Assembly: GCA_035758565.1 (NCBI GenBank)
Contig: DASTXL010000002.1
Coordinates: 147,118-211,117, forward strand
Length of the DNA: 64,000 nucleotides
Reading direction: 5' to 3'
Origin: Candidatus Saccharimonadales bacterium
Lineage (GTDB): Bacteria; Patescibacteriota; Saccharimonadia; Saccharimonadales; UBA10212
Positions 24,163-62,986 of this stretch are shown piece after piece. Below the pieces are notes generated by a model, which saw nothing but the letters and a program-made list of their open reading frames with translations, was not told where the DNA came from and did not search any database. A program made the position numbers and the translations under genes. Each line of letters starts with the position of its first letter. The stretch's first letter is position 1.

Positions 24163-24180
24163 TTATATAGCTTAGCTGAT

Positions 24181-27470: not shown

Positions 27471-27502
27471 TCAGTACTCAATATTTTAGATAAGCTATAC
27501 AT

Positions 27503-27862
27503 ATGATTAGTAGAAAGCATCGGTTTCACGGCTACGGCAGTCTAAAATATGTTTATCGTAACGGCAACACTGTTAGGGGCCCACTATTTGCTGTAAAAAG
27601 TCTGCACAACCCGCGCCGCAAAAGCTACCGTCTAGCCGTAGTGGTAAGTCGCAAGGTTAATAAATCGGCCGTTGTCAGAAACCACATTCGCCGCCGTTTG
27701 TACGAAGTCGTTCGTAGCCTAGAGGATCAAATTGCCGAGCCTTATGACATTGTGATAACGGTTTTTCACGACGTAGTAACAGAAGAATCTCCCAAAAAAT
27801 TGGCCTCTCAGGTTAAAAAGCAGCTTTCTCAAGCGAACATAATCGGCGGACCAAAAACGTAG
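27503..27862 (+). CDS. rnpA: ribonuclease P protein component
   Basis: 119 aa, basic. RLAVVVSRKVNKSAVVRNHIRRRLYE matches the RNR-type motif of RnpA. Position after rpmH. Confidence 0.9.
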   Translation: MISRKHRFHGYGSLKYVYRNGNTVRGPLFAVKSLHNPRRKSYRLAVVVSRKVNKSAVVRNHIRRRLYEVVRSLEDQIAEPYDIVITVFHDVVTEESPKKLASQVKKQLSQANIIGGPKT

Positions 27863-27897
27863 TGTTATAGTAGATAACCAGAGAGATTTATCCTTAT

Positions 27898-28812: not shown

Positions 28813-29294
28813 ATCAAGACATAGAAGAAGCAATTCTTTACGCCAAAAAATACCTAGAGGATCTACTTAGTTTTTTTGGTCTAAATACTGACGTTTATGC
28901 TACCACCGAAGACCACGAAGTAATCGAACTGGAAGTTCCCTCGACACACCTAAATGGATTTTTGATTGGCAGTCGGGGAGACACGCTGCGCTCTTTACAG
29001 CAGCTAATTGCCTCAGCTCTTAAGAACCAAAACTTTAGCCACACCCGCGTTAACATTGATATTGCCGGCTATAAAAAGCAGCACGCCGAGAAACTAGCAA
29101 AACAAGCCGAGACTTGGTTTAAAGAAGTTCAAAAATCTGGTCAACCCAAGGAGCTGGCACCTATGAATCCGGCTGATCGCCGTACTGTTCATAAAGCTGC
29201 CGACGATTACGGACTAATCACCGAATCGGTTGGTTTTGGCCGTGATCGCCACATTGTACTAAAACCAGGCGACAAAACCACCGACGCTGAATAA
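28809..29294 (+). CDS. jag: Jag/KhpB-type RNA-binding protein (KH plus R3H domains)
   Basis: C-terminal R3H region LAPMNPADRRTVHKAADDYGLITESVGFGRDRHIVLKP. Canonical position after yidC. Confidence 0.85.
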   Translation: MNQDIEEAILYAKKYLEDLLSFFGLNTDVYATTEDHEVIELEVPSTHLNGFLIGSRGDTLRSLQQLIASALKNQNFSHTRVNIDIAGYKKQHAEKLAKQAETWFKEVQKSGQPKELAPMNPADRRTVHKAADDYGLITESVGFGRDRHIVLKPGDKTTDAE

Positions 29295-32489: not shown

Positions 32490-33293
32490 ATGTTTAGACA
32501 TGCTTTATCGAAGAAGAATCGAGCTTTAATATCAGAGCTGGTTCGGACAGACTTTAAACTGCGTTACCAAGGATCTGTTTTGGGGTATGCTTGGTCTTTG
32601 CTTCGTCCCCTTTTGATTTTTGTAATTCTGTACGTGGTATTCGTAAAATTCTTAAAACTTGGCACCGAGGTGCCACATTTTCCGATATATCTACTCCTGG
32701 GCATAGTTATATGGAACTTCTTTAATGAAATGACGGTGATGAGCCAGGGTTCAATTGTGGCCCGCGGTGATCTTATTCGCAAAATTAGGATTCCTAGATG
32801 GATTATTGTTCTGTCGAGCAGCTTATCGGCTTTAATTAACTTAGTCCTAAACTTGATTGTGGTGGGAGTTTTTATGGCTATTAACCATGTTGATATTCTG
32901 AAAACAACTTTGTGGTTCCCGCTAATCCTACTAGAAATATATGTTTTTGCGCTCGGTATATCGTTGTTTTTGTCTGCCGCCTTTGTTAAATACCGGGACG
33001 TTGGCTACATTTGGGAAGTCATTCTTCAGGCGGGTTTTTACCTTACCCCAATCTTGTACCCACTGGCTCGAATCACTAACTTAACCTTTCAAAAACTTAT
33101 AATGCTTAACCCTATGGCCCAGACAATTCAGGACGCTCGCTACACGGTTGTAACCCATCAAACGGCTACGACCTTTAGTGTATACGCCGGCGGTTGGCTA
33201 AAATTCACCCCGTTTGTAATAGTGGTTATGGTTTTTGCCGGAGGATTAACCTACTTCATCAAAGAATCTAAATACTTCGCGGAGAATATATAG
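32490..33293 (+). CDS. wzm: ABC-2 type polysaccharide/teichoic-acid exporter permease (Wzm/TagG-like)
   Basis: 267 aa with six hydrophobic helices. N-terminal ELVRTDFKLRYQGSVLGYAWSLLRPLL is the ABC-2 export permease signature. Confidence 0.85.
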   Translation: MFRHALSKKNRALISELVRTDFKLRYQGSVLGYAWSLLRPLLIFVILYVVFVKFLKLGTEVPHFPIYLLLGIVIWNFFNEMTVMSQGSIVARGDLIRKIRIPRWIIVLSSSLSALINLVLNLIVVGVFMAINHVDILKTTLWFPLILLEIYVFALGISLFLSAAFVKYRDVGYIWEVILQAGFYLTPILYPLARITNLTFQKLIMLNPMAQTIQDARYTVVTHQTATTFSVYAGGWLKFTPFVIVVMVFAGGLTYFIKESKYFAENI

Positions 33294-34477
33294 TGGACGG
33301 CGATACGGCAATTTCGGTCGATAGTGTTAGTAAAGTTTTCAAGCTGCCCCGCGAAAAGAATACCTCGGTTAAGTCGGCTGTAGTTAATTTTTACCGCCGC
33401 AATAAAAATTTTGAAATGCAAAAGGCGCTTAATAATGTTTCATTCGAGATTAAAAAAGGCGAATTTTTTGGAATAGTTGGTCGCAATGGCAGCGGCAAAA
33501 GCACAATGCTCAAGGTATTGGCTGGGATTTATTCGCCGACCAGCGGCGCGGTGAAGGTAGAGGGCACACTTACGCCTTTTATAGAACTTGGCGTTGGTTT
33601 TAACGCCGAACTGACTGGCCGCGAAAACGTTTTTTTGAACGGTGCGTTGCTTGGTTTTTCTCGCAAGGAAATGCAGGCAATGTACAAAGATATTGTTGAT
33701 TTTGCTGAGCTTGGAAAGTTCATGGACCAAAAGCTCAAGAACTACTCTTCGGGCATGCAAGTTAGATTGGCCTTCTCTATTGCCATTAGGGCCAAAAGCG
33801 ATATTTTACTTATCGATGAAGTGCTGGCGGTGGGCGATTCGGCTTTTCAACGCAAATGTTTTGAACATTTTGACCGCTTAAAGAACGAAAAAACAACCGT
33901 TATTTTGGTTACCCACGACATGGGTGCCGTAGAGAAATACTGCGACCGAGCTATTTTAATTAACAAAGGAGAACTGGTTGAAGCCGGTGGTCCCCGTGAT
34001 ATTGCCGCTAGCTATCGCTTACTAAACATGGCTACCAGTGAACGTGGCAGCGATAGCGAACAGATTTATGGCAGGCAAGTGAAGATTAAGTCTACCAGGC
34101 TTAACGGACAAACCGATCTGATACTCAAGAATGAGAAAGAGTTAAAGCTCGAAATGGATTTGAGTGCCGCTGTCGACACCGACGTAGTAGCCGGACTTTC
34201 TATTATTAGAGACGACGGGACTTTGATTGCACACTATAACTCTAAAGATGAAAAACCACTAAAGCTCGCCAAAAAGACGCAACATACTATTAAATGCAAC
34301 ATAAACGCCGAGCAGTTTTTAGAAGGCGGCTATCAGATTGATGTTGCTATTTATGATGAGCAGGGCGGCTACCTAGATCGTAAGCCGAATGCAGTGCGCT
34401 TTGCCGCCACGCCAAAAAATACAAGTAAATCAAAATTCGGAATAATGAACCTGGATGGTAAGTGGCAGCTAAATTAA
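33293..34477 (+). CDS. wzt: polysaccharide exporter ATP-binding protein (Wzt/TagH-like) with extra C-terminal domain
   Basis: Walker A GRNGSGKST. Signature YSSGMQVRLAFS. Walker B ILLIDEVLAVGD. About 145 additional C-terminal residues, consistent with a Wzt-type glycan-binding domain. Confidence 0.85.
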   Translation: MDGDTAISVDSVSKVFKLPREKNTSVKSAVVNFYRRNKNFEMQKALNNVSFEIKKGEFFGIVGRNGSGKSTMLKVLAGIYSPTSGAVKVEGTLTPFIELGVGFNAELTGRENVFLNGALLGFSRKEMQAMYKDIVDFAELGKFMDQKLKNYSSGMQVRLAFSIAIRAKSDILLIDEVLAVGDSAFQRKCFEHFDRLKNEKTTVILVTHDMGAVEKYCDRAILINKGELVEAGGPRDIAASYRLLNMATSERGSDSEQIYGRQVKIKSTRLNGQTDLILKNEKELKLEMDLSAAVDTDVVAGLSIIRDDGTLIAHYNSKDEKPLKLAKKTQHTIKCNINAEQFLEGGYQIDVAIYDEQGGYLDRKPNAVRFAATPKNTSKSKFGIMNLDGKWQLN

Positions 34478-43224: not shown

Positions 43225-43826
43225 GGCTGAATATCCATAACTCGACTGTCGGTAGTGGTCTTAGTTTGCCCGTTGAGACTGGCAACAGCAGAAACCGTCC
43301 AGTTTCCAGTAGTAAAACCGGCTGTTTTGACATCCCAATTCCAGGTTACGGAGCCGGTACTGTCGGCTGTCAGCTCGTCTAATTTCTTAACTACGTTGCC
43401 CTGAGTAAATTCTATATAACAGGTTGCACCCGGAACGGTGTTGCAGATAGATTGCTCCTGGCTGGGTGCCGGCGTGCCGCTAAGGTTAGGAATATGGTTG
43501 CTGACAAATGTGCCACTCGGACCCTCAGTTAACGAGCCAGTAGTGCTTGAGCTTGCCGGCACGGGCAAGGATTTCGGAGAGCTGTTATACGAATTTTGAG
43601 CAGTAGTGGTATCAGGGTGGGCGCTGGCGGTATTGGGTCTGGCGTTGGGAGATGTTGAAGCAATAACGCCACTAGTGGCTTTGGGCTGATGGTAATGCAG
43701 CGCAAGAGTCACTCCGCCAATTATTAGCACCGCCACAATAGCGCCGGCGGCGTAAAATCGTTTAAGCTGGTTAGTTTTTAGCTTGCGGGCGGTTAAGCGT
43801 TGCATATTTATTTTGGCTTTCAACAC
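43221..43826 (-). CDS. hypothetical membrane-anchored exported protein
   Basis: 201 aa. TM AAGAIVAVLIIGGVTLAL, then a Ser/Thr/Pro-rich linker and a small beta-rich domain. Confidence 0.5.
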   Translation of the reverse strand: MLKAKINMQRLTARKLKTNQLKRFYAAGAIVAVLIIGGVTLALHYHQPKATSGVIASTSPNARPNTASAHPDTTTAQNSYNSSPKSLPVPASSSTTGSLTEGPSGTFVSNHIPNLSGTPAPSQEQSICNTVPGATCYIEFTQGNVVKKLDELTADSTGSVTWNWDVKTAGFTTGNWTVSAVASLNGQTKTTTDSRVMDIQP

Positions 43827-43892
43827 TTAAAGTATAGCATTTTGAAGTCGAGCTGTAAAAACATAAGTCCCAACCGTATACTTAAAACAAAT

Positions 43893-45338
43893 ATGGCTGA
43901 ATTAGTTAAAAGATTTAAGCGGCCCGAGCTTTTCTTTTTGAGTTGTGCCGCCTTATTTGGCTTTTTGATGGTCGTTCTAACCCCGCCGATGCAAACCTAC
44001 GATGAACAGGACCACTTCTTCCGAGCATATCAATTGTCTACCTTTAATCTAAGACCAGATATCGTGTCCGAAGGCCCGGGAATTTCACCGTCTCAGGCTC
44101 CTGGCGGCAACTTGCCAGTCAATGTAGCTAAAATGGGCTACGGATACCTCTACTCAGTTCGGCTGGACGTTAATCATACATCCCACTATAAACTTGGCGT
44201 TTTGAAGAATAATTTTAAGAACCTGGCTTGGCTAAAAGTCGACAATAATCAAAAACAAGCGGCCTACTTTCCGGGGGCCGGAGCTTACTCACCAATTTCG
44301 TACTTACCGCAGATAGTCGCCATATGGTTGGGGCGCTTGGCTCACACGCCCATACTGTGGTTCTTCTATTTAGGTAGAATATTTAACCTGGCGGCCTGGA
44401 TTGCATTGGTTTATTTCGCCATAAAGCTGCTGCCGGTTGGCCGCTGGCTGATGGTGGCTATAGCTCTACTACCGGTATCACTCTTCCAGGCAGCTACTTT
44501 TTCGGCGGATGCTATGACTAACGGTTTGACATTCTTGGTTGTAGCCCTGTTTTGCTATTTGCTAGCCCAAAAAGAAGTTTCCAGAAAAGATCTCATAATA
44601 ACGCTGGCCGCAACTGGCGCTCTGTCGTTATGTAAGTCGGGTTTTTGGCCACTGGCCTTGCTGTTTTGGTTGATTCCGATCCGTAACTTTGGAAGCTCAA
44701 AAAAATATTTACTAAGCAACTTATCTATAACAGGCTTAAGCCTAGCCTTATTTGGCTTATGGTATTCATTGGTTAAATTCGTCATACCATATATGGCGGC
44801 GGTGCAAAGGGCGGGCGAAACTATTAATTATCAGCAGCAAGTTAAATATATAGAGGGTCACCCGTTTAGTTTTGTAGTGGTTTTATGGCACGAATATTTT
44901 AACAGCACTATGATTGGCGTACTTAAATACGGCGTGGGTATTTTGGGCTGGGGCGAGGCCTCAATTGGGCTGGCAGGCTTCCTGCTCATAATACTAGTGT
45001 TAGTTCTGGGCATTCTAATGGCCGTGACTGAAAAAAATAATTCTAATTTAAAGTGGCCGCAACGGCTAGGAAGCTTAATTATTGCTGCCGGACTGGTGTT
45101 GATGATGAGCATATCGCTTTATGCTGCCTTCACGCCGCTTCATTCTCGATCCATAGACGGACTTCAGGGGCGCTACTTTATACCTTATATAGCCTTATTG
45201 GTGCCGGTTTTTGGAGGAGTTTTGTACAAGTGGCGATCGAAATTGGCGGCAGTTAACCGCTACACGTTAGTAATGCCCACGGCTATTTTGATTTTAATGT
45301 GCTTAAGCGTAGCTGCTATTGTCGGGCGCTACTATTAA
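43893..45338 (+). CDS. DUF2142-like polytopic membrane protein (putative GT-C glycosyltransferase), paralogue 1
   Basis: The ATG at 43893 (MAELVKRFKRPELFF) is preferred over the track start at 43800. First-loop motif YDEQDHFFRAYQLS. More than 10 TM helices. C-terminal GLQGRYFIPY is shared with paralogue 2. Confidence 0.65.
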   Translation: MAELVKRFKRPELFFLSCAALFGFLMVVLTPPMQTYDEQDHFFRAYQLSTFNLRPDIVSEGPGISPSQAPGGNLPVNVAKMGYGYLYSVRLDVNHTSHYKLGVLKNNFKNLAWLKVDNNQKQAAYFPGAGAYSPISYLPQIVAIWLGRLAHTPILWFFYLGRIFNLAAWIALVYFAIKLLPVGRWLMVAIALLPVSLFQAATFSADAMTNGLTFLVVALFCYLLAQKEVSRKDLIITLAATGALSLCKSGFWPLALLFWLIPIRNFGSSKKYLLSNLSITGLSLALFGLWYSLVKFVIPYMAAVQRAGETINYQQQVKYIEGHPFSFVVVLWHEYFNSTMIGVLKYGVGILGWGEASIGLAGFLLIILVLVLGILMAVTEKNNSNLKWPQRLGSLIIAAGLVLMMSISLYAAFTPLHSRSIDGLQGRYFIPYIALLVPVFGGVLYKWRSKLAAVNRYTLVMPTAILILMCLSVAAIVGRYY

Positions 45339-45372
45339 CCAGCCGATTAACCTATAATTGTCTTTGAATATC

Positions 45373-46050
45373 ATGAAGAGTGTTTATGTTGTCATACCCG
45401 TTTATAACGAGGCGACTGTTGTCGGGTCGGTAATAGAAGAAGTCTGCAAGCAGTATCCCAACGTCGTTGGGGTGGATGACGGCAGCCGAGATAACTCAGG
45501 TGAAGAAATTAAGAAAGCAGGCGGCATTTTAGTGCAGCATGCCGTTAATGTCGGTCAGGGCGGAGCGCTTCAAACCGGCATTGACTACGCCCTGAAAGAC
45601 AAAGAGGCTGAATACTTAGTGACATATGACGCCGACGGACAACATAGTCTTAAAGACGTAGGCCACATGCTCGATGTAATCCAAAAGGAAAAGGTGGATA
45701 TCGTTTTGGGCTCGCGTTTTTTGGGCAAGACCGAGCGTTTATCCCCACTCAAAAAAGTAATCTTGAAGCTGGCTATCCAGTTCTCTAACCATACTTCAGG
45801 CCTTAAGCTAACAGATACTCATAACGGACTTAGGGTTTTTAATCGCCACTTTGCCGAGAATTTGAATATTCAAAACCCGGATTTTTCGCATGCCTCAGAA
45901 ATAATCGATAAAATCGCGCGCGGTAACTACAAATACTGCGAAGTCCCAGTCACGATCAAGTACACTGATTATTCTAAGGCCAAGGGCCAATCAATTTTTA
46001 ATGCTGTAAACATGGGTTTTGACATTTTGTTAGGCAGGATAATTAAATGA
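45373..46050 (+). CDS. GT2 polyprenyl-phosphate glycosyltransferase (GtrB/GacI/DPM1-like)
   Basis: VVIPVYNE...VDDGSRDNSG...TYDADGQH... Small soluble GT2 followed by a small membrane partner. The track start at 45358 is a TTG. Confidence 0.8.
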   Translation: MKSVYVVIPVYNEATVVGSVIEEVCKQYPNVVGVDDGSRDNSGEEIKKAGGILVQHAVNVGQGGALQTGIDYALKDKEAEYLVTYDADGQHSLKDVGHMLDVIQKEKVDIVLGSRFLGKTERLSPLKKVILKLAIQFSNHTSGLKLTDTHNGLRVFNRHFAENLNIQNPDFSHASEIIDKIARGNYKYCEVPVTIKYTDYSKAKGQSIFNAVNMGFDILLGRIIK

Positions 46051-46391
46051 TTATAAAGATTGTTATCATCGCTTTTGTACTAGCGGCAATGTTTTGGTTT
46101 CTGGCCAATAGGAACACGCATCAATCTAAAGCCTGGCAGAAAATCGGTATTATTTTATTAACAATCATTGCCGTGATCGTGGTTTGGATGCCCGACACTT
46201 CTAATAAGTTTGCGCACAAACTAGGAGTTGGTAGAGGAGCGGACCTGTTGCTTTATCTTTTGACGCTAGCCTTTATCTTCGTGGTTTTGAACACTTACAT
46301 TAAAAGCAAAGAGGAGCAGCGGCGAATGGTTAAGATCGTACGACGTCTGGCTCTACTTGAAGCCTCTATCAATAAAAAAAATGAACGCTAG
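46047..46391 (+). CDS. small 3-TM membrane protein (DUF2304/GacJ-like partner of GT2)
   Basis: 114 aa with three TM helices and a basic C-terminus. ATGA-coupled to the GT2. Confidence 0.6.
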   Translation: MIIKIVIIAFVLAAMFWFLANRNTHQSKAWQKIGIILLTIIAVIVVWMPDTSNKFAHKLGVGRGADLLLYLLTLAFIFVVLNTYIKSKEEQRRMVKIVRRLALLEASINKKNER

Positions 46392-46791
46392 GCTTGCCGT
46401 TACTCTAAAGAATTCACCACAAGCTCGGTTTCTCATTGTTGGTTCTATGACAGTAGTCGTCGAGTATGTGGTTTTTTATATCCTTTACGTTGGCCTTAAC
46501 TGGAACTTGTTTTTAGCAAATTCCCTGAGTTTTGCAGTCGGTTTATCAATGAGTTTTATGTCTAACCGTTTATGGGCGTTCAAAAAAGACGAGTTTGAGC
46601 GGCCGGCCCACCACCAAGCAATGATTTACGCCGCTTTGGCCGTCACTAATCTTGTTGTTAATAACTTGATTGTTGGCGGTTTGAAAAGTGCTGGACTCGA
46701 TCCAAGAATTGGCAAGGTGGCCGCTATCGCCGTAATTGCGGTTTGGAATTTCTTTGTCTACAAACATATTATTTTTAAAGAAAAGCACTAG
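46381..46791 (+). CDS. GtrA-family membrane protein (polyprenyl-phosphate-sugar handling)
   Basis: RFLIVGSMTVVVEYVVFYIL...SFMSNRLWAF matches the GtrA pattern. The track start at 46357 is a TTG; the ATG at 46381 is preferred. Confidence 0.75.
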   Translation: MNARLAVTLKNSPQARFLIVGSMTVVVEYVVFYILYVGLNWNLFLANSLSFAVGLSMSFMSNRLWAFKKDEFERPAHHQAMIYAALAVTNLVVNNLIVGGLKSAGLDPRIGKVAAIAVIAVWNFFVYKHIIFKEKH

Positions 46792-46855
46792 CGTCTTAAA
46801 AAGCAGCTTTCGGTCTGCTAAAATAGAGCTAAATCTTAGGGGGATTTAAGCTAAA

Positions 46856-48283
46856 ATGGCCCAAGCCTACGGGTATCTGGCAGCTGGCGTAAAAAAATTC
46901 TTCGCTAACCCAGTTCAAAAATATTTTTTCTGGACTGCCTTAGTGTTTGGGCTTTTATTCTGTATAGTTACGCCCCCGTTTAATGTTCACGATGAAGACA
47001 CGCACATGTACCGTGCGTATCAAATATCTCGCGGGGATTTTGTTAGCAATAAAATCCCCGGCGGGCTGGGCGGCCAAATACCGGCGAGTATTGTTGTAGA
47101 CGCCACCGATTACCGCGCAAATTATTTTGGCAAAAACGAGAAAATAAATACAGCTAGATTTCATAAAGATTGGAATGCGCCACTTAAGGCTTCGGACACC
47201 GTGCCGATCCATTTTGAAAACACTGCACTTTATCCACCAGTAGCTTACGCGCCTCAGGCCATTACTATAAGAATCCTAAGTCACTTTGATCTATCGCCGC
47301 TGAAACTTTTGTATATTAGCCGCATTGCTACGTTTTTGGTGTGGCTGATTCTAGCCAGTCTGGCGGTATATTTTATGCCGACTAAAAAAATCCTACTAGC
47401 AGGCATTTTGCTTCTGCCGATGTCCATGTTCCTAGCGGGATCAATATCGGCCGATGCTTTATCAAACGGCCTCGCGGCTCTAACGGTTGCGTATTATTTA
47501 GCTGCAATTGTCAGCCCCGAAAAGAAAATTGGCTGGCGTCAAGCTGCCTTAATGGTACTAATGTCGGTTTTGCTGGGCTTGGTCAAGCAGCCCTATTGGT
47601 TGGTGGGTTTGCTCAGCGTACTATTGCCATCTCAGAAATTTGCTTCGAAACGCGATGAGGTAATTAAGAAAACCTTAATTATTGGAGCACTGATTATAGT
47701 GGCCGGTACTTGGATTATCTTAAGTAAGCATATCTTTGCGCCATATCGCCACGACGTTGTTATTGACCCAAATGGTCAGTTATCGTTTGTCTTTAGTCAC
47801 CCGCTTACCTTTATCAGGACCTTATGGAACACTTACGTAACCGCCAATGGCAGTGGTTTTATACGAGAATTTGTGGGCGTTCTAGGCGCTGGCATGTTGC
47901 AGCTGCCTGTTTGGGTGAACTATCTGACCATTCTTTCACTTAGCTGGTATGCTCTAGCACCGGACAAAAGGTTCCCTAGTATTACGCACCGGACAAAAAG
48001 TGTCTTCGTCATCATTGCGGTAATTTTTGCTGGAGCTGTCAGCCTACTCCTCTATACTAACTGGACGCCAGTCGGCGAAGAGAAAATAGAAGGCCTGCAA
48101 GGCAGGTATTATTTGCCAATTGCCATGGTGCTCATACCGGCTTTTATCAATGTAGATCGCTTACGGGTCAAGGAAGGAAGACTGACTAAGCCTGCCTTTG
48201 GCGTAATGATTCTGGTTCTGACTACTGCCATAATCTGCTCTGTCCAGTTTAACTATCAAGTGCTTGACAGGTTCTTGAGTTAA
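46856..48283 (+). CDS. DUF2142-like polytopic membrane protein (putative GT-C glycosyltransferase), paralogue 2
   Basis: HDEDTHMYRAYQIS first-loop motif and GLQGRYYLPI near the C-terminus, parallel to paralogue 1. GGGGGA SD upstream. Confidence 0.65.
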   Translation: MAQAYGYLAAGVKKFFANPVQKYFFWTALVFGLLFCIVTPPFNVHDEDTHMYRAYQISRGDFVSNKIPGGLGGQIPASIVVDATDYRANYFGKNEKINTARFHKDWNAPLKASDTVPIHFENTALYPPVAYAPQAITIRILSHFDLSPLKLLYISRIATFLVWLILASLAVYFMPTKKILLAGILLLPMSMFLAGSISADALSNGLAALTVAYYLAAIVSPEKKIGWRQAALMVLMSVLLGLVKQPYWLVGLLSVLLPSQKFASKRDEVIKKTLIIGALIIVAGTWIILSKHIFAPYRHDVVIDPNGQLSFVFSHPLTFIRTLWNTYVTANGSGFIREFVGVLGAGMLQLPVWVNYLTILSLSWYALAPDKRFPSITHRTKSVFVIIAVIFAGAVSLLLYTNWTPVGEEKIEGLQGRYYLPIAMVLIPAFINVDRLRVKEGRLTKPAFGVMILVLTTAIICSVQFNYQVLDRFLS

Positions 48284-48284: not shown

Positions 48285-49877
48285 ATGCTGCCTAGACTGT
48301 TCGCTGCCGTCAGAAGCCATGTGTTTATTACTGTTCTAGTAGCGGTATTTTTGTTGATCGGGATTGCGTTTTCGGTGACTTGGTACCGTTATCAACTAAA
48401 TCCAGATGCCAGTTCCTATTTCACCATCGCTTATAAATACGCCCACTTTAACATCAAAGACGCCCTAAACGGCTATTGGTCGCCGCTACTTTCTTGGCTG
48501 CTAGTGCCTGCAGTCTGGTTGCACATTGGTTTATCGGCAGCGGCCAAAATACTGACAATCTTTATTAGTGGAATTATTTTAACCATTGTCTATGCTTTTT
48601 TGGTGCGCCGCGGCTCTTCTAAAACCTTAGCAACAATGGTCTGCCTATTTTTGGCGGCACTGTTGCTTGATTGGGGTATGGTAGGGCCAATCACGCCTGA
48701 TCTGCTAATGGCCTTAATGATCTTGATGTTTACTCTGTTGCTCAATAGCTACATTAGTTTGCCAACCCGCAACAAGGCGTTGTTGCTGGGTGCTAGCGGT
48801 GCTTTGATGTACTACGCCAAAGGCTTAGGCTTTTACTTATTTTTGTTCTGTTTGCTGGCTGTAGTTTGTTGGCAGTGGCTGCTTGCCAGAAAGGAGCTTA
48901 AAAAATATGCTCGCCTGCACCTAATCGCGCTGGCTAGTTTTTTAGTTATCTGTGCGCCGTTTATTATCGCCGTTTCGGCAAAATACAATGCGCCCACGAT
49001 CAGCACGGCCGGTTCGTTAGATCACAAGGTTTTTGGACCTTACTACCAGGGTAATTTGTATCCGGAATTGTTTGCCGGGCCGCTGCCGCCGCCCAATGCC
49101 TCGGCCGTGACACCGGGCGAGGACCCGGGCGCCAGCTTTGACTTAAGCAAAGGTGCCTGGAGCCCTCTGTCGTCTAGCGGCAACTTTAAGTATTTTATGA
49201 AGTCGGTTGTCTGGAACAACGGCATAAAAACACTGAATTTCTTCAAGGACTTTGGCGTTTTTATAGTGCTTGCAACGGTGATTACTTTGATTGGGTGTCT
49301 AAAACAGACCACTTATCGGCGGGAATTCGTGATTTTTAGCTTGGTTGGCGTGCTGCTTTGTTTAGGCTACTGCTTAATCTATACAGAGGCGCGTTATGTT
49401 GAAGCGGCCGTTTTCTTGGCGCTGCTTGGCGCCGGTTTGTGGTTGTCGAGTCTGCAAAAGCGTAACCTACTAAACCAAGCGCAAATTATAGTGACTGGTC
49501 TTTTGGTGGCTGGCTTTGCCTCTATTTCTACGGCTCACGCCATTAATCAAAACCGTTATGTTGACAGGGCTCAATCTGATTTAGCGGCGAGCCTTAAGGC
49601 AGATTTGCCACCAGGTTCAAACATCATCTCCGATCAATATTCTTCCTACTTTGTGTGCTATTACCTAAAGCTGCATTGTTACGGCAACATTTATCTTGCA
49701 GGCCAGAACGACGACCAATACTACCAAAAAATCAAAGACTCTCACATCACTTATTATCTGGACTATCATAGTCAAGACAGCGACTCTAGGTTAAATGCAT
49801 TTGTGACCGATTACTTTAATCACCTGCGCGACCAAGCCTGGGCCGGCGGTACGCTAAGCATCTACAAAATTAATTAG
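48285..49877 (+). CDS. GT-C fold membrane glycosyltransferase (ArnT/PMT-like)
   Basis: 530 aa. About 10 or more N-terminal TM helices followed by a soluble C-terminal domain, the typical GT-C architecture. Early loop YRYQLNPDASSY. Confidence 0.55.
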   Translation: MLPRLFAAVRSHVFITVLVAVFLLIGIAFSVTWYRYQLNPDASSYFTIAYKYAHFNIKDALNGYWSPLLSWLLVPAVWLHIGLSAAAKILTIFISGIILTIVYAFLVRRGSSKTLATMVCLFLAALLLDWGMVGPITPDLLMALMILMFTLLLNSYISLPTRNKALLLGASGALMYYAKGLGFYLFLFCLLAVVCWQWLLARKELKKYARLHLIALASFLVICAPFIIAVSAKYNAPTISTAGSLDHKVFGPYYQGNLYPELFAGPLPPPNASAVTPGEDPGASFDLSKGAWSPLSSSGNFKYFMKSVVWNNGIKTLNFFKDFGVFIVLATVITLIGCLKQTTYRREFVIFSLVGVLLCLGYCLIYTEARYVEAAVFLALLGAGLWLSSLQKRNLLNQAQIIVTGLLVAGFASISTAHAINQNRYVDRAQSDLAASLKADLPPGSNIISDQYSSYFVCYYLKLHCYGNIYLAGQNDDQYYQKIKDSHITYYLDYHSQDSDSRLNAFVTDYFNHLRDQAWAGGTLSIYKIN

Positions 49878-50298
49878 TTTGGAGGTCGGGCGTTGATAGC
49901 AATCGTCGCCGAGCAAAAAAACTCCAAAAGAATACGCCGAGCAGCGCTAGTAGTTTGGACTTTAAATAAAACAGACCAACAGCTGAAGTAAAGAACCAAA
50001 TAATAACTAAATTAAGGCCAAGGCCAACAATGCCGATTATCAAAAACATAATAATTTCGACGTGGCGACGGTAAGCGGATCGCGAAAAAACCCAGACCGT
50101 ACTCAGCAGGTAGTTTAAAATTAGCGATATTAAAAACGAGGCAGTGGCCGAAAGCAGGTAAAACCAGTGCAGGTAGTGGGTGAAAATAAATAGCAAACCG
50201 GTGTCGACTATGGCAGCGGCTACCGCCACAAAGCCATATCGGAAAAACTGGATTACAAGAGCGTCGGAATTGCGAACAAGAATCTTCGATAAATCCAT
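49870..50298 (-). CDS. GtrA-family membrane protein (second copy)
   Basis: QFFRYGFVAVAAAIVDTGLLFIF...STVWVFSR matches the GtrA pattern. 4 TM. Confidence 0.75.
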   Translation of the reverse strand: MDLSKILVRNSDALVIQFFRYGFVAVAAAIVDTGLLFIFTHYLHWFYLLSATASFLISLILNYLLSTVWVFSRSAYRRHVEIIMFLIIGIVGLGLNLVIIWFFTSAVGLFYLKSKLLALLGVFFWSFFARRRLLSTPDLQTN

Positions 50299-50373
50299 GC
50301 CTCATCATTTTAACTGCTTTAGGGATCGCTGTGTAGCCTTGTCTAAAAAACTTATATAAATTAATCTTAAAGA

Positions 50374-51303
50374 ATGCTGGTTAAAAATCTGCTGGACGTG
50401 TTCCGGCCTAAGCGCTGGTACCGTAATTTAATGATGATCATCGGCGTGCTCATCGCTGTAAAAGTTCTCAATTTAGACATTTCCCAAACCTTTGGTGGAA
50501 CTAATAGTTGGACGTTTGTGGCCGCTCTAGTTTCGCTATGTTTGATCGCTTCGGCCAACTACGGCATCAATGAGGTGCTAGACGCGCCGTTTGACGCTAA
50601 GCACCCACAGAAAAAGCATCGGGCCATTCCGTCGGGCCGAATTTCGGCTAAGCTTGTAGTTTGGATTTCGATTGGACTATATATACTAGGCATGGCCGTG
50701 GTGGCACTTACCACTAAGTGGCCGCTAATCGCTTCGGTATTCCTGCTTTTGCTCAGCGGCATAGTTTATAACATTCCGCCTATTAGATTAAAAGACCGCG
50801 CTTACGTGGACTTTACCACCGAAGCTCTTAATAACGCTATCCGCTTAATGATCGGTTGGTACGTTATAGCCAGTAGCAGCCAGTGGGTGCCGGCGTCCTT
50901 TGTGCTGGCTTATTGGTTTATCGGGGTCTTTTTAATGGCTTCTAAACGCTTTGGCGAAATCCGTTTGATTGGTGACAGGAAAGCCGCTGGTGAATACCGC
51001 CGCAGCCTAGCCCATTACGATGAAGAGCATTTATTAATGTCGATGATCGGCGCCCTGGCAGCCTGTTATTTTATGGTCGGTTTCTTGTGCTTTAAGTACA
51101 GCGTCGATATTGTTATTGTCCTGCCATTTATGGTCGGTTGGGTAATCTGGTTCTTTAAGCTGGCTTTCGAAGACAACACCATTGTTAAAGATCCGGAACG
51201 TATTTTTGAAAAAAAAGGCTTTTTGTCTTATAGCTTGCTAACCGGCATATTGTTTGCCTACTTTTTCTTTAGTGGCAGCCAATTTCTTAACTGGATAAAA
51301 TAA
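50374..51303 (+). CDS. UbiA-superfamily prenyl/phosphoribosyl transferase (decaprenyl-phosphate phosphoribosyltransferase-like)
   Basis: First Asp-rich motif NYGINEVLDAPFD (NxxxDxxxD). 8-9 TM. Operonic with a HAD phosphatase and a PRPP synthase. Confidence 0.65.
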   Translation: MLVKNLLDVFRPKRWYRNLMMIIGVLIAVKVLNLDISQTFGGTNSWTFVAALVSLCLIASANYGINEVLDAPFDAKHPQKKHRAIPSGRISAKLVVWISIGLYILGMAVVALTTKWPLIASVFLLLLSGIVYNIPPIRLKDRAYVDFTTEALNNAIRLMIGWYVIASSSQWVPASFVLAYWFIGVFLMASKRFGEIRLIGDRKAAGEYRRSLAHYDEEHLLMSMIGALAACYFMVGFLCFKYSVDIVIVLPFMVGWVIWFFKLAFEDNTIVKDPERIFEKKGFLSYSLLTGILFAYFFFSGSQFLNWIK

Positions 51304-51899
51304 TGGCTAAACCGGTACTCGCTGCCTTTGATTTTGACGAAACGCTTATAGCTAAGGATAGTCTGCTGGATTTTCTACGATACTCATTCAACACCCCAAC
51401 ATTTTTAATTAAGAGTGCGTGGTTTATCCCAACCCTAGTTGCTTTTAAGACAGGCAGGATTAGTAACTCAGAAGCTAAGCGCCGGTTACTCACTCTGTTT
51501 TTGAAAGGTATGGACGATAAAAGATTTGGCCTACTCTGCGAGGCTTATGTCAACCGTTTAGAAATTATTAAAAATCCAGAAGCCATCGAGCGTCTGCGGT
51601 GGCACGCCAAAAAAGGCCACAAAACAATAATTATCAGCGCCTCGGCCGAAGATTGGATTAAGCCCTGGGCGGCACGATATGGCGTAAGCGATGTGATCGC
51701 CACCAAACTTGAAAGAAAGCAGGGCAAGCTTACCGGTAGCTTATCCGGCAAAAATTGCCACGGGCCAGAAAAGATAGTTCGCTTGCTAAAAGATTTTCCG
51801 GACCGCGGCAATTATGAATTATATGTTTACGGCGACGGCAAATCCGATCAAGATCTTTTTAAGGTTGCCGACCGAATTTTCGAAAAAAAGTTTGCCTGA
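51303..51899 (+). CDS. HAD-superfamily phosphatase (HAD-IB/SerB-like)
   Basis: Motif I AAFDFDETL. IIISAS (motif II). GDGKSD (motif IV). Overlapping start and stop codons on both sides. Confidence 0.8.
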   Translation: MAKPVLAAFDFDETLIAKDSLLDFLRYSFNTPTFLIKSAWFIPTLVAFKTGRISNSEAKRRLLTLFLKGMDDKRFGLLCEAYVNRLEIIKNPEAIERLRWHAKKGHKTIIISASAEDWIKPWAARYGVSDVIATKLERKQGKLTGSLSGKNCHGPEKIVRLLKDFPDRGNYELYVYGDGKSDQDLFKVADRIFEKKFA

Positions 51900-52813
51900 T
51901 GGACACAGAAGTTATTATCAAAACAGCTTCTGGAGCAGAAAGAGTTAGTGTCCTGTTTTCGGAGTTCCCAGATCAGGACAGTCACTGTGTTGTGGAGGAT
52001 TGCGACAAAGTTGCCGACAAGCCAGTACTTATTATGCACAGTCTCTACCCCGATCAGAACAATCAACTCGTTAAGCTAGTTCTACTTTTAAGCGCCCTTA
52101 AAGACGCCGGTGCTGTTAGTGTGGCCGTTTTTGTTCCGTATTTGCCCTACAGCCGTCAAGACAAAAAACATGTCGCCGGCGAAGCTGTTAGTTTGGACGT
52201 TGTTCTGTCGTTTATGGCGAACGCCGGCTGCGACCAGCTTTATACGATCGATTGCCACTTTATGAAAGGAGCCGCTCAGTGCGAGCGGGCCGGACTCAGT
52301 ATTAAGAATTTTTCCGCAGGCAAAAGATTGCTCGATCACTGTCGAAGCGTTCTGAGCAACGAAGACCTGCAGATTATTGGTCCTGATGAAGGCGCTAAGT
52401 ATCTTCTAGACGGCACCCGTAGTGGGCATATGAAAAAGCTGCGGGGTGGTTATGGAGAGCTTGCTAAAGGCAACAGCTACCGTAAGATTGCCGAGCTCAA
52501 AAGCGAACACCTCGATATAACTTGCGGAGACATAGTCATCGTCGACGATATGATAAGCACCGGCTCGACTCTTATTAAGGCCATTGATAATTTAAAAAAT
52601 CAGGGAGCAAAAAACATTTCTTGCGTAGCGAGCCACGGTCTATTTATAGGCGACGCCTACCAAAAAATAAATAAACTTTGTTCAAACATAGTCGTCTCGG
52701 ACACGATTAATCACTTGAAATCGGTGCCGGTTGTTGACGATTTACTTATTGAAAAGATAATTCCTGATTGGTTTAAACTAGACCCAGCAAGTACTGACCA
52801 TACCCGGATTTAG
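51899..52813 (+). CDS. prs: ribose-phosphate pyrophosphokinase (PRPP synthase)
   Basis: [14 protein letters not shown] (divalent cation/ribose-5-P site pattern) and PRPP-binding loop [14 protein letters not shown]. Confidence 0.85.
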
Positions 52814-53627
52814 TGAGCGGCTGAGCTAACTCTTTGAGCTTAGCGTCGTCGATAAAACCCTGGCGCCAGGCAGCTTCCTCTATGCAGCCAATTTTGATAC
52901 CTTGACGCTCTTCGATAACTTGCACGAACTGGGCAGCCTGATTAAGCGTGGCAAAGGTGCCGGTGTCGAGCCAAGCGGTGCCACGGTCTAGTAGCTGAAC
53001 TTTGAGCTTGCCGGCTCGCAAATAGGCGTTGTGGAGCTCGGTGATTTCAATCTCTCCACGAGCCGATGGTTTAACATCTTTGGCGTAATCAACAACATCG
53101 TTATCGTAAAAATATAATCCTGGAATGGCGTAGTTCGATTTTGGTTTTTCTGGTTTTTCTTCGATGGATAAAACGTTCATATCCTTGTCGAACTCCACGA
53201 TGCCGTAACGCTCTGGGTCGGCGACTTGAGCGCCAAAAATATAACCACCATCAACGTCGGTTAAACTTTTTAGGTCGCTAAGTTGGCTGCCGTAAAAAAT
53301 GTTATCGCCTAAAATCATGGCCACCTTGTCATTGCCAATAAAGTCGGCGCCAACTATAAAGGCGTCTGCCAAACCACGGGGCTCATCTTGGACTTTATAG
53401 CTAAAGGAGCAGCCGATCCGGCTACCATCGCCCAGTAACTGTTCAAAGCGGGGCAAATCGTGCGGCGTAGAGATAATTAGAATTTCTCGTATGCCTGCAT
53501 CGATCAGTGTTGTTAACGGGTAGTAAACCATGGGTTTGTCATAAAGCGGGATAAGCTGTTTACTAACGCCCATAGTAATTGGATAAAGTCTGGTGCCAGA
53601 TCCTCCGGCTAAAATTATGCCCTTCAT
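52773..53627 (-). CDS. rmlA: glucose-1-phosphate thymidylyltransferase
   Basis: [18 protein letters not shown]...C-terminal YGQYLL. Confidence 0.93.
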
Positions 53628-54488
53628 TTATTTTTTCTCCATTTCCTTATCGACGTAATTCTTGAGTTCGCTATGCCAGTCGCTGAGCTGAGCCCCGGAA
53701 GACTTTATTTTAGTTAAGTCCATAGCGCTCTTTAAAGGTCGAGGTGAACTTTCGGGCTTGCTGGCGAAGTACTCCGCTGTTGTAGTGTCGGTAACCTTCA
53801 GGTCTTTACGGCCCATATACTCAAAGATTAGGCGAGTGATATCGGCCCAAGAAGCCGGGTCTCCATCATTTGAGACATTATAGATTCCAAATTCAATTTG
53901 ATTTCTTAGTGCATGGTCGATGACATCAACCAGCGTGGGCGTAAAGGTCAGGCGGCCTACTTGATCCGCTACTACGGTCGGCGAAACATTCTTTTCGGCC
54001 AAACCCATCATGGTACGGACGAAATTGTGGCCCTCGCCAATTAACCAGGAAATACGAAAAATGTAGTGCTTGGGTGTCAGGCCGGCCACGATTTCACTCG
54101 CTGCTTTAGTTTGTGCGTAAACGCCCAGCGGCGAATAAGGCTCATTGACGGCGTGATTGTCTTTGGTGCCGTCAAAAACATACTCTGTTGAAACATGAAC
54201 CAGAGTCAAATTATTCACCTGAGCAGCTTCAACTAGATGAGCTACCGCCTGAGCATTGACTCTCCAAGCCGCCACTCGGCCTTCAGGTGTTTCGGCCGCG
54301 TCAACATTCGTAAATGCGGCAGCGTTGATTATCGCATCGATGTTAGACCAATTGTAGCCAAGTACGCTATCGCGATTAGTGATATCCATCTGATCGATGT
54401 CGGCTGATTGAGCATTTGGATATTTTTGGCGTAGGGCGGTGCCTAGCTGACCATTAGCGCCGGCAATAAAAATCTTTGAACCGTCCAT
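53628..54488 (-). CDS. rmlD: dTDP-4-dehydrorhamnose reductase
   Basis: IFIAGANGQLG...STEYVFDG...YAQTKAASE (YxxxK). Confidence 0.9.
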   Translation of the reverse strand: MDGSKIFIAGANGQLGTALRQKYPNAQSADIDQMDITNRDSVLGYNWSNIDAIINAAAFTNVDAAETPEGRVAAWRVNAQAVAHLVEAAQVNNLTLVHVSTEYVFDGTKDNHAVNEPYSPLGVYAQTKAASEIVAGLTPKHYIFRISWLIGEGHNFVRTMMGLAEKNVSPTVVADQVGRLTFTPTLVDVIDHALRNQIEFGIYNVSNDGDPASWADITRLIFEYMGRKDLKVTDTTTAEYFASKPESSPRPLKSAMDLTKIKSSGAQLSDWHSELKNYVDKEMEKK

Positions 54489-61144: not shown

Positions 61145-61906
61145 ATGATTGGTGACAAACCTACAATTCAGCAAGTGCTTAAGAATTTAGGCTTTTCTGA
61201 AGCCGAAGGCGAGACATTTTGGGCGCTCATGAATCTAGAAACCGTTTCAATTCGCAAAGTGGCGGCCGCTAGCGGTATTAATCGAGGCACGACCTACGAA
61301 GCAATTAAGAGCCTGGTTGCAGCCGGCCTGGTCACGGCCCGTAAAGTCGGCGCGCGCGAATACTTTACCGCCGAATCTCCAGATAAAATTAATGATTTGA
61401 TTCGCGACAAGCGCAAGGATTTATTGCAAGTCCAGCAAGACGCCCAAAAATTAATTCCAGAGCTTTTGGCCCGTAAAGCTCGGCCCAAAGGCCGGCCGCT
61501 AGTTAAGTATTACGAAGACGATGAAGGCGTGGTGACAATCCTACGGGATGTGTTGCAAACTTGCGGCCAGCTAGATAAGCCGGAATACCGCGTTTATTCG
61601 TCACGGCCTCTGCGCCAGTATTTATACCGCAAGTTCCCGCAATTTACGGATCGCCGGGTGCGTGAGGGCATTGCCGTAAAAGTGATTGCTGTTGGTGAGG
61701 GCGGCGACCCGGCAGAAGTAAGCGAACGTAAGTGGCTGCCGGAACCAGCTGGCGGCGAGATCTCAAGCTACGCAATTATTTATGGCGATAAAGTAGCTAA
61801 TATCTCGATTTCCAGCGACTTCACGCCTTACGGAGTGGTGATCGAAGACGCTGGTGCTGCCGCTATGCAGCGCTTATTATTCGATAAGCTTTGGCGATCT
61901 TTATAA
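61145..61906 (+). CDS. TrmB-family winged-helix transcriptional regulator
   Basis: N-terminal LKNLGFSEAEGETFWALMNLETVSIRKVAAASGINRGTTYEAIKSLVAAGLV, a typical TrmB HTH. Confidence 0.75.
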   Translation: MIGDKPTIQQVLKNLGFSEAEGETFWALMNLETVSIRKVAAASGINRGTTYEAIKSLVAAGLVTARKVGAREYFTAESPDKINDLIRDKRKDLLQVQQDAQKLIPELLARKARPKGRPLVKYYEDDEGVVTILRDVLQTCGQLDKPEYRVYSSRPLRQYLYRKFPQFTDRRVREGIAVKVIAVGEGGDPAEVSERKWLPEPAGGEISSYAIIYGDKVANISISSDFTPYGVVIEDAGAAAMQRLLFDKLWRSL

Positions 61907-62986
61907 GCCGGCTATAAACTTACTAAATTTAGTCCGGAATTCGGCGGCCGAAAATTGGCTAGCGAACTTTGCGATTTTTTCGTGGTTGAAACTATCGGGC
62001 TTAAAGTTTGCTAAAGCCCTGGCTAGTGATTTAGCGGTCTGTTCATTAAACAATAAACCCGTATCTTTAGTTACGTAATCCAGCGCGCCGCCCTGACCGT
62101 AGGCTATAACTGGCGTGCCAGCCGCCAGAGCCTCCACGGCTACAATTCCAAAATCATCCAATCCAGGGAAGATAAAAGCTTGGCTGGTCTTAAACAAATG
62201 AACGAGCTTTTCGTCGTCGGCCTGCATGAATGTAACACTTTTGCCGGCCATTTTTTTAAGACGTCGGTTATCGGGGCCTTTGCCGGTTACAATGAGCGGC
62301 ATACTGAGCTGGCTGCAAGCTTCAACCGCTAAAGCTATGCGCTTATATGGTGTTTGCCGGCCAGCCGTTATAAAGCCGCGCCGGGGTTCATCCACGTTGC
62401 CGCCGTAGCGCTCGACATCAACCGGCGGGTGAATGACATACGCCTCGCGGCCATAATATTTTTTGATTTCGGATTTAATAAAGTTAGAGTTGGCAATTAC
62501 ATAGTCTGGGCGCTGGGCGGCCTGATAGTCCCAGCGGCGCAAAGGACCAACCAGCAGCTTGAGACCCAGGCGGGCCACAGGATCAAACCGGCCAAAGCCG
62601 GGTTGTTGCATATACTCGTCGTAGCGGCTCCAATAATAGTGAGTCGGCGCATGACAATAGTTAACATGTAAAGTATTTTGACTAGTTTTAATGCCTTTAG
62701 CCTCGGCGCCAGAGCTAGAAATCACTAAATCATAATCAGAAAAATCTAATCGGCTAAACCACCAAATTCTAAGGATTGGTAGATATTTGCGCATACTCGA
62801 GAACGGCCACTTTTGCAAAAAACCAGTGATTATAGGTGCTGGTTCTAGGCGCTTGCGCCATTCGTCGGAAATGTAAGATGTGTAGATAGGTGCTTCTGGA
62901 TAGAGTTTGTGAATTTCTAAAACAACCTTTTCGGCACCGCCGCCAACAAACCAGTCGTGAACAATCGCGACTTTTGACTTGGCCAT
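61901..62986 (-). CDS. glycosyltransferase family 4
   Basis: VAIVHDWFVGGGAEKV...IFPGLDDFGIVAVEALAAGTPVIAYGQGGALD matches the GT4 E(x7)E region. Confidence 0.85.
   Translation of the reverse strand: MAKSKVAIVHDWFVGGGAEKVVLEIHKLYPEAPIYTSYISDEWRKRLEPAPIITGFLQKWPFSSMRKYLPILRIWWFSRLDFSDYDLVISSSGAEAKGIKTSQNTLHVNYCHAPTHYYWSRYDEYMQQPGFGRFDPVARLGLKLLVGPLRRWDYQAAQRPDYVIANSNFIKSEIKKYYGREAYVIHPPVDVERYGGNVDEPRRGFITAGRQTPYKRIALAVEACSQLSMPLIVTGKGPDNRRLKKMAGKSVTFMQADDEKLVHLFKTSQAFIFPGLDDFGIVAVEALAAGTPVIAYGQGGALDYVTKDTGLLFNEQTAKSLARALANFKPDSFNHEKIAKFASQFSAAEFRTKFSKFIAGL

Follow-up and report, generated by a model that had tools for sequence, protein, structure and literature searches.

A UbiA-HAD-PRPP synthase operon in Saccharibacteria, a candidate source of lipid-linked ribofuranose for wall-polysaccharide decoration

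Background

A three-component system for the addition of pentofuranose side chains, biochemically characterised and widespread, was described by Kelly et al. (PNAS 2024; PMC11127046). In Citrobacter youngae O1/O2 its components are ORF15, a PRP-PPPRS, ORF14, a transporter, and ORF12, a GT-C enzyme of family GT136. ORF15 is a HAD-UbiA fusion that forms farnesyl-phosphate-ribose from 5-phosphoribosyl 1-pyrophosphate (PRPP), and its HAD domain strips the 5'-phosphate (PMC11127046). The supporting information of the same work contains one example in which PRP is separate from PPPRS, and it allows the transporter to be of MATE or SMR type; known systems diversify the sugar through DprE1/DprE2 or through an SDR epimerase (PMC11127046). 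Here we analyse a 64,000-nucleotide stretch of contig DASTXL010000002.1 of a Candidatus Saccharimonadales bacterium, called the window below, in which three overlapping genes at 50374-52813 encode a UbiA-superfamily protein, a HAD phosphatase and a PRPP synthase (Prs). With moderate confidence, we read the region 48285-52813 as encoding a system of the Kelly et al. kind for glycosylation with pentofuranose side chains, with ribofuranose (Ribf) as the sugar of its donor.

Surface glycans of the Saccharibacteria and other epibionts of the candidate phyla radiation (CPR) are essentially uncharacterised, yet they lie at the interface with the host cell. The locus yields a testable prediction in this respect, namely a PRPP-derived polyprenyl-phosphate ribofuranose donor and a wall polysaccharide decorated with Ribf.

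Results and discussion

Gene organization and comparison with described systems

Locus searches covered the 64-kb window and about 10 kb past its right edge, on a contig of 356 kb. The genes of the predicted system are the following.

48285-49877, forward strand: 530-aa polytopic membrane protein, predicted GT-C glycosyltransferase using a lipid-linked pentose (AlphaFold2 (AF2) model and Foldseek)
49870-50298, reverse strand: small membrane protein of the GtrA family, which may be a flippase or escort for a lipid-linked pentose (PF04138, E 3e-17)
50374-51303, forward strand: UbiA-superfamily membrane enzyme, predicted PPPRS, similar to decaprenyl-phosphoryl-5-phosphoribose (DPPR) synthase (PF01040, E 1.2e-27)
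51303-51899, forward strand: HAD-IB phosphatase, predicted polyprenyl-phospho-5-phosphoribose 5'-phosphatase and PRP analogue (PF12710, E 2.9e-36; TIGR01490)
51899-52813, forward strand: ribose-phosphate diphosphokinase (PRPP synthase), archaeal/class-III-like (TIGR01251)

One base is common to the UbiA stop codon and the HAD start codon (aaaTAATGgct), and likewise to the HAD stop codon and the Prs start codon (gccTGATGgac). The first-pass annotation had described three genes with overlapping stop and start codons, and this is borne out by the coordinates of the open reading frames (ORFs) and by the two junctions. The identities that it gave to the three products agree with the Pfam and NCBIfam matches, and the motifs quoted in it were all located: NEVLDAPFD at UbiA residues 66-74, DFDET (motif I) at HAD residues 10-14, and [13 protein letters not shown] at Prs residues 213-225. 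The GtrA gene that it placed beside the operon is there as well, divergent from the UbiA gene and 75 bp upstream on the opposite strand. A promoter and terminator scan of 49800-53700 gave counts at, or modestly over, the shuffle expectation. At the other end of the operon, the convergent 3' ends of prs (forward) and rmlA (reverse) share 41 nt (52773-52813).

Is this a system of the Kelly et al. type? To judge from sequence, the locus matches that kind on each feature tested. Like its Citrobacter counterpart it would join a UbiA-type enzyme akin to Rv3806c to a 5'-phosphatase of the HAD family, a small transporter in the membrane and a glycosyltransferase of the GT-C type; it also adjoins an ABC-transporter-type polysaccharide locus, and without an epimerase it implies Ribf. 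There are differences in the details. In the window, HAD has a gene of its own, which follows UbiA and is translationally coupled to it, whereas in ORF15 it is the N-terminal domain. The transporter candidate belongs to the GtrA family rather than to the MATE type, and the GT-C candidate to an unannotated family with 40 homologues found, whose sole likeness noted to ORF12 is an Asp with a Tyr four residues on (D41/Y45 in the 530-aa protein, D31/Y35 in ORF12). Unlike in Citrobacter, a PRPP synthase gene lies inside the operon, and the host is a CPR/Saccharibacteria epibiont.

The mycobacterial decaprenyl-phosphoryl-arabinose (DPA) pathway is the other near relative. The two have in common a first step that depends on PRPP, as predicted for the window, where the closest solved structure is Rv3806c; a GtrA-family protein encoded nearby, which is Rv3789 in mycobacteria; and final transferases of the GT-C type (Emb/Aft), AftA being among the fold matches of the 530-aa protein. 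However, the UbiA protein of the window is not an Rv3806c equivalog (75 bits against a cut-off of 207), the phosphatase is of the HAD-IB type and not a PAP2 protein like Rv3807c, neither DprE1 nor DprE2 was seen in the window or in the scanned loci, and the predicted product is Ribf instead of arabinofuranose (Araf). By these comparisons the window system would not be a member of the DPA pathway proper. While prs is clustered in the window operon, to our knowledge this is not so in Mycobacterium tuberculosis. Beyond the window, about 18 kb rightwards from the operon, a PAP2-family phosphatase is encoded (L041, 18907-19575), with no linkage evident; although its superfamily is that of Rv3807c, it is more probably an undecaprenyl-diphosphate phosphatase.

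Similar gene sets were found in two further settings. Cassettes on large plasmids of Rhizobium (L033, 6950-8999; L036, 7827-9879) resemble the window in that UbiA and HAD are two genes whose ends overlap, with GtrA next in order; their UbiA proteins are 33-38% identical to that of the window, and their HAD protein shows no detectable similarity to the window HAD. A search of a phage collection gave one weak UbiA match, a split cluster on MT837543.1, which is an unverified human-gut 'phage' scaffold with the order UbiA-HAD-SMR-epimerase-DUF6044. Its UbiA is 25% identical to the window UbiA, and its HAD scores 133 bits against the window HAD. Both the Rhizobium cassettes and MT837543.1 are without prs and differ from the window in their GT-C families; their annotation is generic only, and none has been characterised. 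The L033 cassette (R. etli pRetIE4803d) adjoins virB type IV secretion genes.

How much of this is new? According to the first-pass annotation, such a pathway was not known to be described in this kind of organism. The pathway design itself was published by Kelly et al. in 2024 (PMC11127046), so the statement has to be narrowed to the CPR host and the operonic prs, which do seem new. Literature searches pairing Saccharibacteria or Patescibacteria with the pathway returned nothing relevant. The occurrence in Saccharibacteria/CPR, the operonic and sometimes non-orthologous prs, and the unannotated GT-C family appear to be unreported so far.

Family assignment of the UbiA protein

Does the UbiA protein belong with the membrane phosphoribosyltransferases or with the quinone and haem prenyltransferases? 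Of its top four NCBIfam models, three are for DPPR synthases and one, NF006088, is for the HAD-UbiA fusion; all score 58-75 bits. Against the DPPR-synthase equivalogs NF008976-8 it scores 75, 70.5 and 58 bits, the cut-offs being 207, 234 and 474, and on NF006088 its score is likewise low (74 bits, cut-off 351). The next model is NF009516, a generic prenyltransferase, at 40 bits, while the models of haem O, chlorophyll, geranylgeranylglyceryl phosphate (GGGP) and quinone prenyltransferases stay below 40 bits with cut-offs of at least 180. Since no equivalog cut-off is reached in the NCBIfam scan, either for a prenyltransferase or for a DPPR synthase, the protein is to be regarded as a distant relative and not as an orthologue.

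Other comparisons point in the same direction. In a sequence search of the PDB (E<0.01), Rv3806c (8j8j) was the sole match, with an E value of 9e-12. A profile of the UbiA family gave 74.7 bits to Rv3806c, against 20.3 to E. coli UbiA, 18.2 to CyoE and 3.0 to MenA. In a neighbour-joining tree, the UbiA family, alphaproteobacterial plasmid homologues, Rv3806c and a DPPRS-like protein of locus L028 formed one clade with 100% bootstrap against E. coli UbiA, CyoE and MenA; this tree is small, has just these three E. coli enzymes as outgroups and is indicative only. An AF2 model built on 25 family members, with a predicted local distance difference test (pLDDT) value of 90.1, has 8j8j as its best fold match (template-modelling (TM) score 0.76/0.81, root-mean-square deviation 3.6 Å), and the archaeal AfUbiA is second at 0.68. 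The fold ranking of this model fits the other comparisons but does not discriminate strongly. Placement of the protein with the membrane phosphoribosyltransferases, and not with the quinone or haem prenyltransferases, is supported by these sequence comparisons. A phylogeny had been proposed in the first-pass annotation as a check, and its outcome, together with the profile scores and the PDB match, groups the protein with the Rv3806c-type phosphoribosyltransferases, outside UbiA/MenA/CyoE.

A comparison at the level of residues is possible because the contacts of Rv3806c with the pyrophosphate, the ribose and the 5'-phosphate of PRPP have been reported (PMC10994848). With Rv3806c as the reference, the alignment of 25 UbiA-family members gave the following residues at these positions.

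R22: R
K28: R or Q
Y70: Y
N73: N
D77: D
K87: K
R90: R
Q135: G or A (not conserved)
Y138: Y
K143: K
Y157: N or S (not conserved)
K208: K, R or L (mostly basic)

By this alignment, most of the PRPP-site residues of Rv3806c are retained in the family. Y70, K87 and the pair H84-P85 are invariant in 25/25 members and missing from E. coli UbiA, CyoE and MenA. In the window UbiA, the loop-II motif is N66-E67-x-x-D70-x-x-x-D74, and loop IV contains K191-R192-x-x-E195, aligned to KRYAE of Rv3806c. The loop-II N..D..D and the loop-IV R..E residues are thus present as in the Citrobacter system, with Glu and not Asp as the second residue of the loop-II motif.

These data bear on one alternative, in which UbiA would be a conventional prenyltransferase dependent on a prenyl diphosphate (of the quinone, haem O or ether-lipid-like kind), with HAD and prs as chance housekeeping neighbours. 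It would explain why the protein meets generic PF01040 only and no equivalog cut-off, and it could draw on AfUbiA as the second-best fold match (TM 0.68) and on the Asp-rich motifs, which are common across the UbiA superfamily. It fits poorly, however, with prenyltransferase models at 40 bits or less against 75 for the DPPR synthases, with a PDB search in which no prenyltransferase structure was matched at E<0.01, and with the PRPP-specific residues that are kept here and not found in E. coli UbiA, CyoE and MenA. What is more, the HAD partnership is conserved or fused, prs has been recruited repeatedly and non-orthologously, as described below, and the setting is one of glycan synthesis, with no quinone or haem genes seen in the window. 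We therefore regard this alternative as highly improbable. Some UbiA-family relatives from other lineages (P0310, P0311, P0326, P0334 and P0352) are fused to an N-terminal GT2 or class-I methyltransferase domain.

The HAD phosphatase as a conserved partner

The HAD protein scores 133 bits against TIGR01490 (cut-off 98), and its motif IV reads GDGKSD. Is its position next to UbiA particular to this genome? UbiA-family loci were drawn from Saccharibacteria, other Patescibacteria, Planctomycetota, Synergistota, Fibrobacterales, Ignavibacteria, Bacteriovoracaceae, Omnitrophota and Thiotrichaceae. In 19 of the 23 distinct loci, an ORF of about 200 aa with an N-terminal DxDxT lies directly against the UbiA gene or overlaps it, downstream in Saccharibacteria and upstream in most phyla. 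The HAD-UbiA partnership is conserved across many phyla.

Fused forms exist as well. When 1.84 billion cluster representatives were searched, the next-closest clusters beyond the UbiA family included N-terminal-HAD fusions of 504-522 aa, an architecture shared with ORF15, and the UbiA domain of the HAD-UbiA fusions is 40-46% identical to the window UbiA. The fused relatives P0281, P0282 and P0284 also fall short of the NF006088 cut-off and form an independent HAD-UbiA fusion lineage. The window HAD itself matches the HAD region of NF006088 weakly (E 0.003), for which reason we do not claim orthology to the PRP domain. For UbiA and HAD as a pair, synthesis of a PRPP-derived polyprenyl-phosphate pentose is likely, more so than the full model of a Ribf donor.

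The PRPP synthase and its probable coupling to the operon

The third gene product scores 173.6 bits against TIGR01251 (cut-off 113), and its best PDB match is M. jannaschii Prs (1u9y, E 3e-26). It contains FPDQD, YSRQDKK, DCH, KKLR and DDMISTGST, which we take to be the canonical Prs catalytic motifs. The closest homologue other than the source protein itself is 54% identical.

Why would a PRPP synthase gene stand in such an operon? Among nine loci of the Saccharibacteria type, prs was found in five, namely the window, L004, L005, L040 and L029; it follows HAD directly in L004, L005 and L040 and is one gene off in L029. The UbiA proteins of L004 and the window share 71% identity, yet in L004 the slot after HAD (2296-3270) holds a classical class-I bacterial Prs, which gives only 78 bits against the window Prs and is thus of a non-orthologous type. 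In L028, a Prs 43% identical to that of the window is part of an RpiB-Prs-UbiA-HAD-GtrA-epimerase cluster, whose UbiA belongs to a different, Rv3806c-like clade. The recurrence of a non-orthologous prs in the same slot, together with the L028 cluster, suggests functional coupling rather than chance adjacency, and the idea of a housekeeping gene that happens to be adjacent is weakened by the L004 replacement.

The first-pass annotation had called this gene a dedicated PRPP synthase. Its place in the operon stands; its dedication is not established, given a 44%-identical Prs in a nucleotide-salvage context. The adjacency is conserved in five of the nine Saccharibacteria-type loci, with two types of Prs, and also in the L028 clade, but not in the other four.

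The GtrA protein and the 530-aa membrane protein

Orthologues of the GtrA protein (125-181 bits) lie beside UbiA-HAD in L001, L004, L005 (about 2 kb away), L038, L039 and L040. The 530-aa protein gives no match in Pfam and NCBIfam scans, and a search of 5.8 billion proteins gave only 40 homologues, one of them labelled ArnT-like by JGI. Its AF2 model has a pLDDT of 93.9, and the Foldseek matches in the PDB are STT3/PglB, ArnT (query TM score, TMq, 0.59), ALG9, DPY19 and AftA, all of which are GT-C enzymes. Immediately past the first transmembrane helix stand D41 and Y45, which do not vary within the family. On the strength of this model the protein is predicted to be a GT-C glycosyltransferase. 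The UbiA-HAD(-Prs) genes have an orthologue of it as their direct neighbour in L004 (a fragment), L005, L029, L037 and L040, and in L038 and L039 other ORFs of 550-570 aa without a Pfam match stand in for it.

Three GT-C candidates had been counted near the operon in the first-pass annotation. The GT-C fold supports the 530-aa protein as one of them, and the other two, both DUF2142 proteins, could not be confirmed as GT-C enzymes: comparison of DUF2142 with the 530-aa GT-C gave no detectable relation (hhalign probability 1%), and DUF2142 had no match in the PDB sequence search.

Is the sugar epimerised?

The identity of the pentose depends on whether an epimerase takes part. The DprE1 and DprE2 probes used here passed validation, with 795 and 427 bits where the NCBIfam cut-offs are 500 and 250. 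With these probes no match at E<1e-3 was obtained in the window ORFs or in any fetched locus scanned, which confirms for the window the earlier remark that DprE1/DprE2-like oxidoreductases are missing from it. Besides RmlB and RmlD, no SDR or flavin oxidase turned up when the ORFs between about 22 kb and the right end of the window were scanned with Pfam, and no oxidoreductase was seen in the next 10 kb or so to the right. The SDR genes rmlB and rmlD complete an rmlABCD set, so a role for them in the pentose pathway is unlikely. As no epimerase accompanies the operon genes, the added sugar is most likely ribofuranose. The lipid-linked ribofuranose donor proposed in the first-pass annotation is thus supported in silico, by the placement of UbiA, the HAD partnership and the lack of an epimerase in the scanned sequence.

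Could the lipid-linked ribose be made in the same way and then be epimerised to arabinofuranose or xylofuranose, before GT-C transfer, by an enzyme encoded elsewhere? The epimerases of the known systems (PMC11127046) give a precedent, and related clusters with epimerases occur at L028 (PF01370 genes, a GMC-like oxidoreductase and an SDR), at L035 (PF01370) and at L039, with an RmlD-like gene nearby. The scan took in about 74 kb of the 356-kb contig. Against this stand the stretch from about 22 kb to the window end and 10 kb beyond, with no DprE1/DprE2, spare SDR or FAD oxidase, the other Saccharibacteria-type loci, in which no epimerase was found save the RmlD-like gene of L039, and the habit of characterised systems to keep the epimerase clustered with their other genes (PMC11127046). 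On balance we think that such later epimerisation is unlikely.

The L028 cluster (GCA_025928155.1, 3311-15149) deserves a separate remark. It has the order RpiB-Prs-UbiA-HAD-GtrA-NAD epimerase with two proteins of about 541 aa without a Pfam match, and upstream of it lie a GMC-oxidoreductase-like flavoprotein, an SDR and another GtrA. The flavoprotein and the SDR could be a DprE1/E2 analogue built from unrelated enzymes.

Proposed mechanism and its significance

From these observations we infer a ribofuranose side-chain pathway, including its catalytic steps, its carrier lipid, the glycan that accepts the sugar and the anomeric outcome. Prs would convert ribose-5-phosphate and ATP to PRPP, and the UbiA-like enzyme would move 5-phosphoribose from PRPP onto a polyprenyl phosphate, presumably undecaprenyl phosphate, at the cytoplasmic face. 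The translationally coupled HAD phosphatase would then strip the 5'-phosphate to give polyprenyl-phosphate-ribofuranose, and the divergent GtrA protein may help to carry this lipid to the outer face. There the 530-aa GT-C would attach ribofuranose to wall polysaccharide already exported. The acceptor is probably a rhamnose-containing polymer, exported by the ABC transporter of the 29-64 kb locus described below.

Several points weigh against this scheme. The UbiA protein has about 21% identity to Rv3806c in the structural alignment, and its 75 bits are far short of the DPPR-synthase cut-off. Two of the PRPP contacts, Q135 and Y157, are not conserved in the family, and the Glu at the second position of the loop-II motif is equivalent to a position where the D248A replacement in ORF15 nearly abolished activity (PMC11127046). 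As to prs, it is missing at L001, L037, L038 and L039, four of the nine Saccharibacteria-type loci, and no UbiA-family locus of other phyla has it. In L027, a 44%-identical Prs stands amid nucleotide-salvage genes with no UbiA near, so the window prs could be a housekeeping copy. The part of the contig beyond the 74 kb leaves room for an epimerase. As for the GtrA step, we know of no member of that family for which flippase activity has been directly demonstrated.

If the ribofuranose pathway is true, the pentofuranose paradigm of 2024 would reach an ultra-small lineage of reduced metabolism, the module would gain the supply gene prs, and an unannotated GT-C family would be nominated as a pentofuranosyltransferase. 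A stronger version would be that PRPP synthesis is wired into envelope decoration, with prs, replaceable by a non-orthologous type, being the sole or a dedicated copy, and that the 530-aa protein founds a family of GT-C pentofuranosyltransferases and places Ribf on a rhamnose-type wall polymer shown by these epibionts to their actinobacterial hosts; this we put forward as a tentative and rather doubtful extension. There may also be consequences for annotation. The UbiA-family search returned 814 cluster representatives at E<=1e-10 and 176 at E<=1e-30, many beside a HAD gene, and thousands of genes labelled just 'UbiA family prenyltransferase' could be re-annotated.

The neighbouring module and the wall-polysaccharide locus

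Upstream of the 530-aa gene, contiguous and co-directional with it, is a module of five genes assigned by Pfam.

43800-45338, forward strand: DUF2142 protein
45358-46050, forward strand: PpgS-like GT2 (also NF058614)
46047-46391, forward strand: DUF2304 protein
46357-46791, forward strand: second GtrA protein
46856-48283, forward strand: second DUF2142 protein

The GT2 scores 263 bits against NF058614, the polyprenyl-phospho-GalNAc synthase PpgS, which is below the cut-off of 370. DUF2142 proteins occur in rgp loci (PMC9746298). With its GT2 lipid-sugar synthase, small membrane partner, flippase and polytopic glycosyltransferase, the module resembles the streptococcal/lactococcal type. By this analogy, 43800-48283 is probably a separate hexose or N-acetylhexosamine side-chain module, like streptococcal, lactococcal and mycobacterial systems, and it is more probably in this GT2/DUF2304/GtrA module than in the pentose pathway that the two DUF2142 proteins act. 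The streptococcal and lactococcal rhamnose-polysaccharide systems share the logic proposed here, that is, extracytoplasmic decoration of a rhamnan-type wall polymer; they take their sugars from nucleotide sugars via GT2, whereas the window operon would take them from PRPP via a UbiA-type enzyme. The likeness of the module extends to side-chain systems of the GacI/GacJ or Rv3631/Rv3632 type. The same GT2 and a small ORF likewise adjoin the 530-aa orthologue in L005 and L040.

Is the polysaccharide then the acceptor, or might the PRPP-derived lipid-linked sugar serve pilin glycosylation or a lipoglycan, with the 530-aa GT-C belonging to the GT2/DUF2304 module? In P. aeruginosa a homologous pathway arabinosylates pilin (PMC11127046), the 530-aa gene shares its strand with, and is contiguous with, the GT2-DUF2304-GtrA-DUF2142 genes, and an acceptor cannot be read from sequence. 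On the other hand, the 530-aa orthologue accompanies UbiA-HAD in L037 and L029, short contigs in which no GT2 module was seen, and the surroundings of the operon are those of a polysaccharide locus, with rml genes and an ABC transporter among them. Another acceptor, or another partner for the 530-aa protein, therefore seems to us distinctly unlikely.

The genes between 29 and 64 kb of the window encode GT4, GT2 and methyltransferase proteins, rmlABCD, GlmS, a phosphoglucosamine-mutase-like enzyme and an initiating Bac_transf enzyme, and by this content the region can be taken as a wall-polysaccharide locus. Two of its features are placed as follows.

32490-34477: Wzm/Wzt-like ABC transporter
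61901-62986: GT4

Directly past the right edge of the window there are a Wzy_C protein and a third GtrA. The setting is like that of Citrobacter, in which decoration takes place outside the membrane, on a polymer that an ABC transporter has exported.

The left part of the window is of a different nature. The region 23101-29294 is a chromosomal origin neighbourhood, with recF, dnaN and dnaA on the reverse strand, then rnpA, yidC and a Jag-like KH/R3H gene, and the cumulative GC skew has its minimum near 20-22 kb. A type-IV-secretion-like block at 8930-22265 encodes a PrgI-family protein, a VirB4/TraG-like ATPase and an amidase/SLT hydrolase, as well as proteins of 1235, 1052 and 452 aa without a Pfam match. 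Finally, L005 (CAVWNV010000009.1), from a contig of 279 kb, is labelled 'uncultured Acidimicrobiaceae' and has 49% GC over 19 kb; its arrangement GtrA/UbiA/HAD/Prs/530-aa is near-identical to that of the window, and it is probably a mis-binned Saccharibacteria contig.

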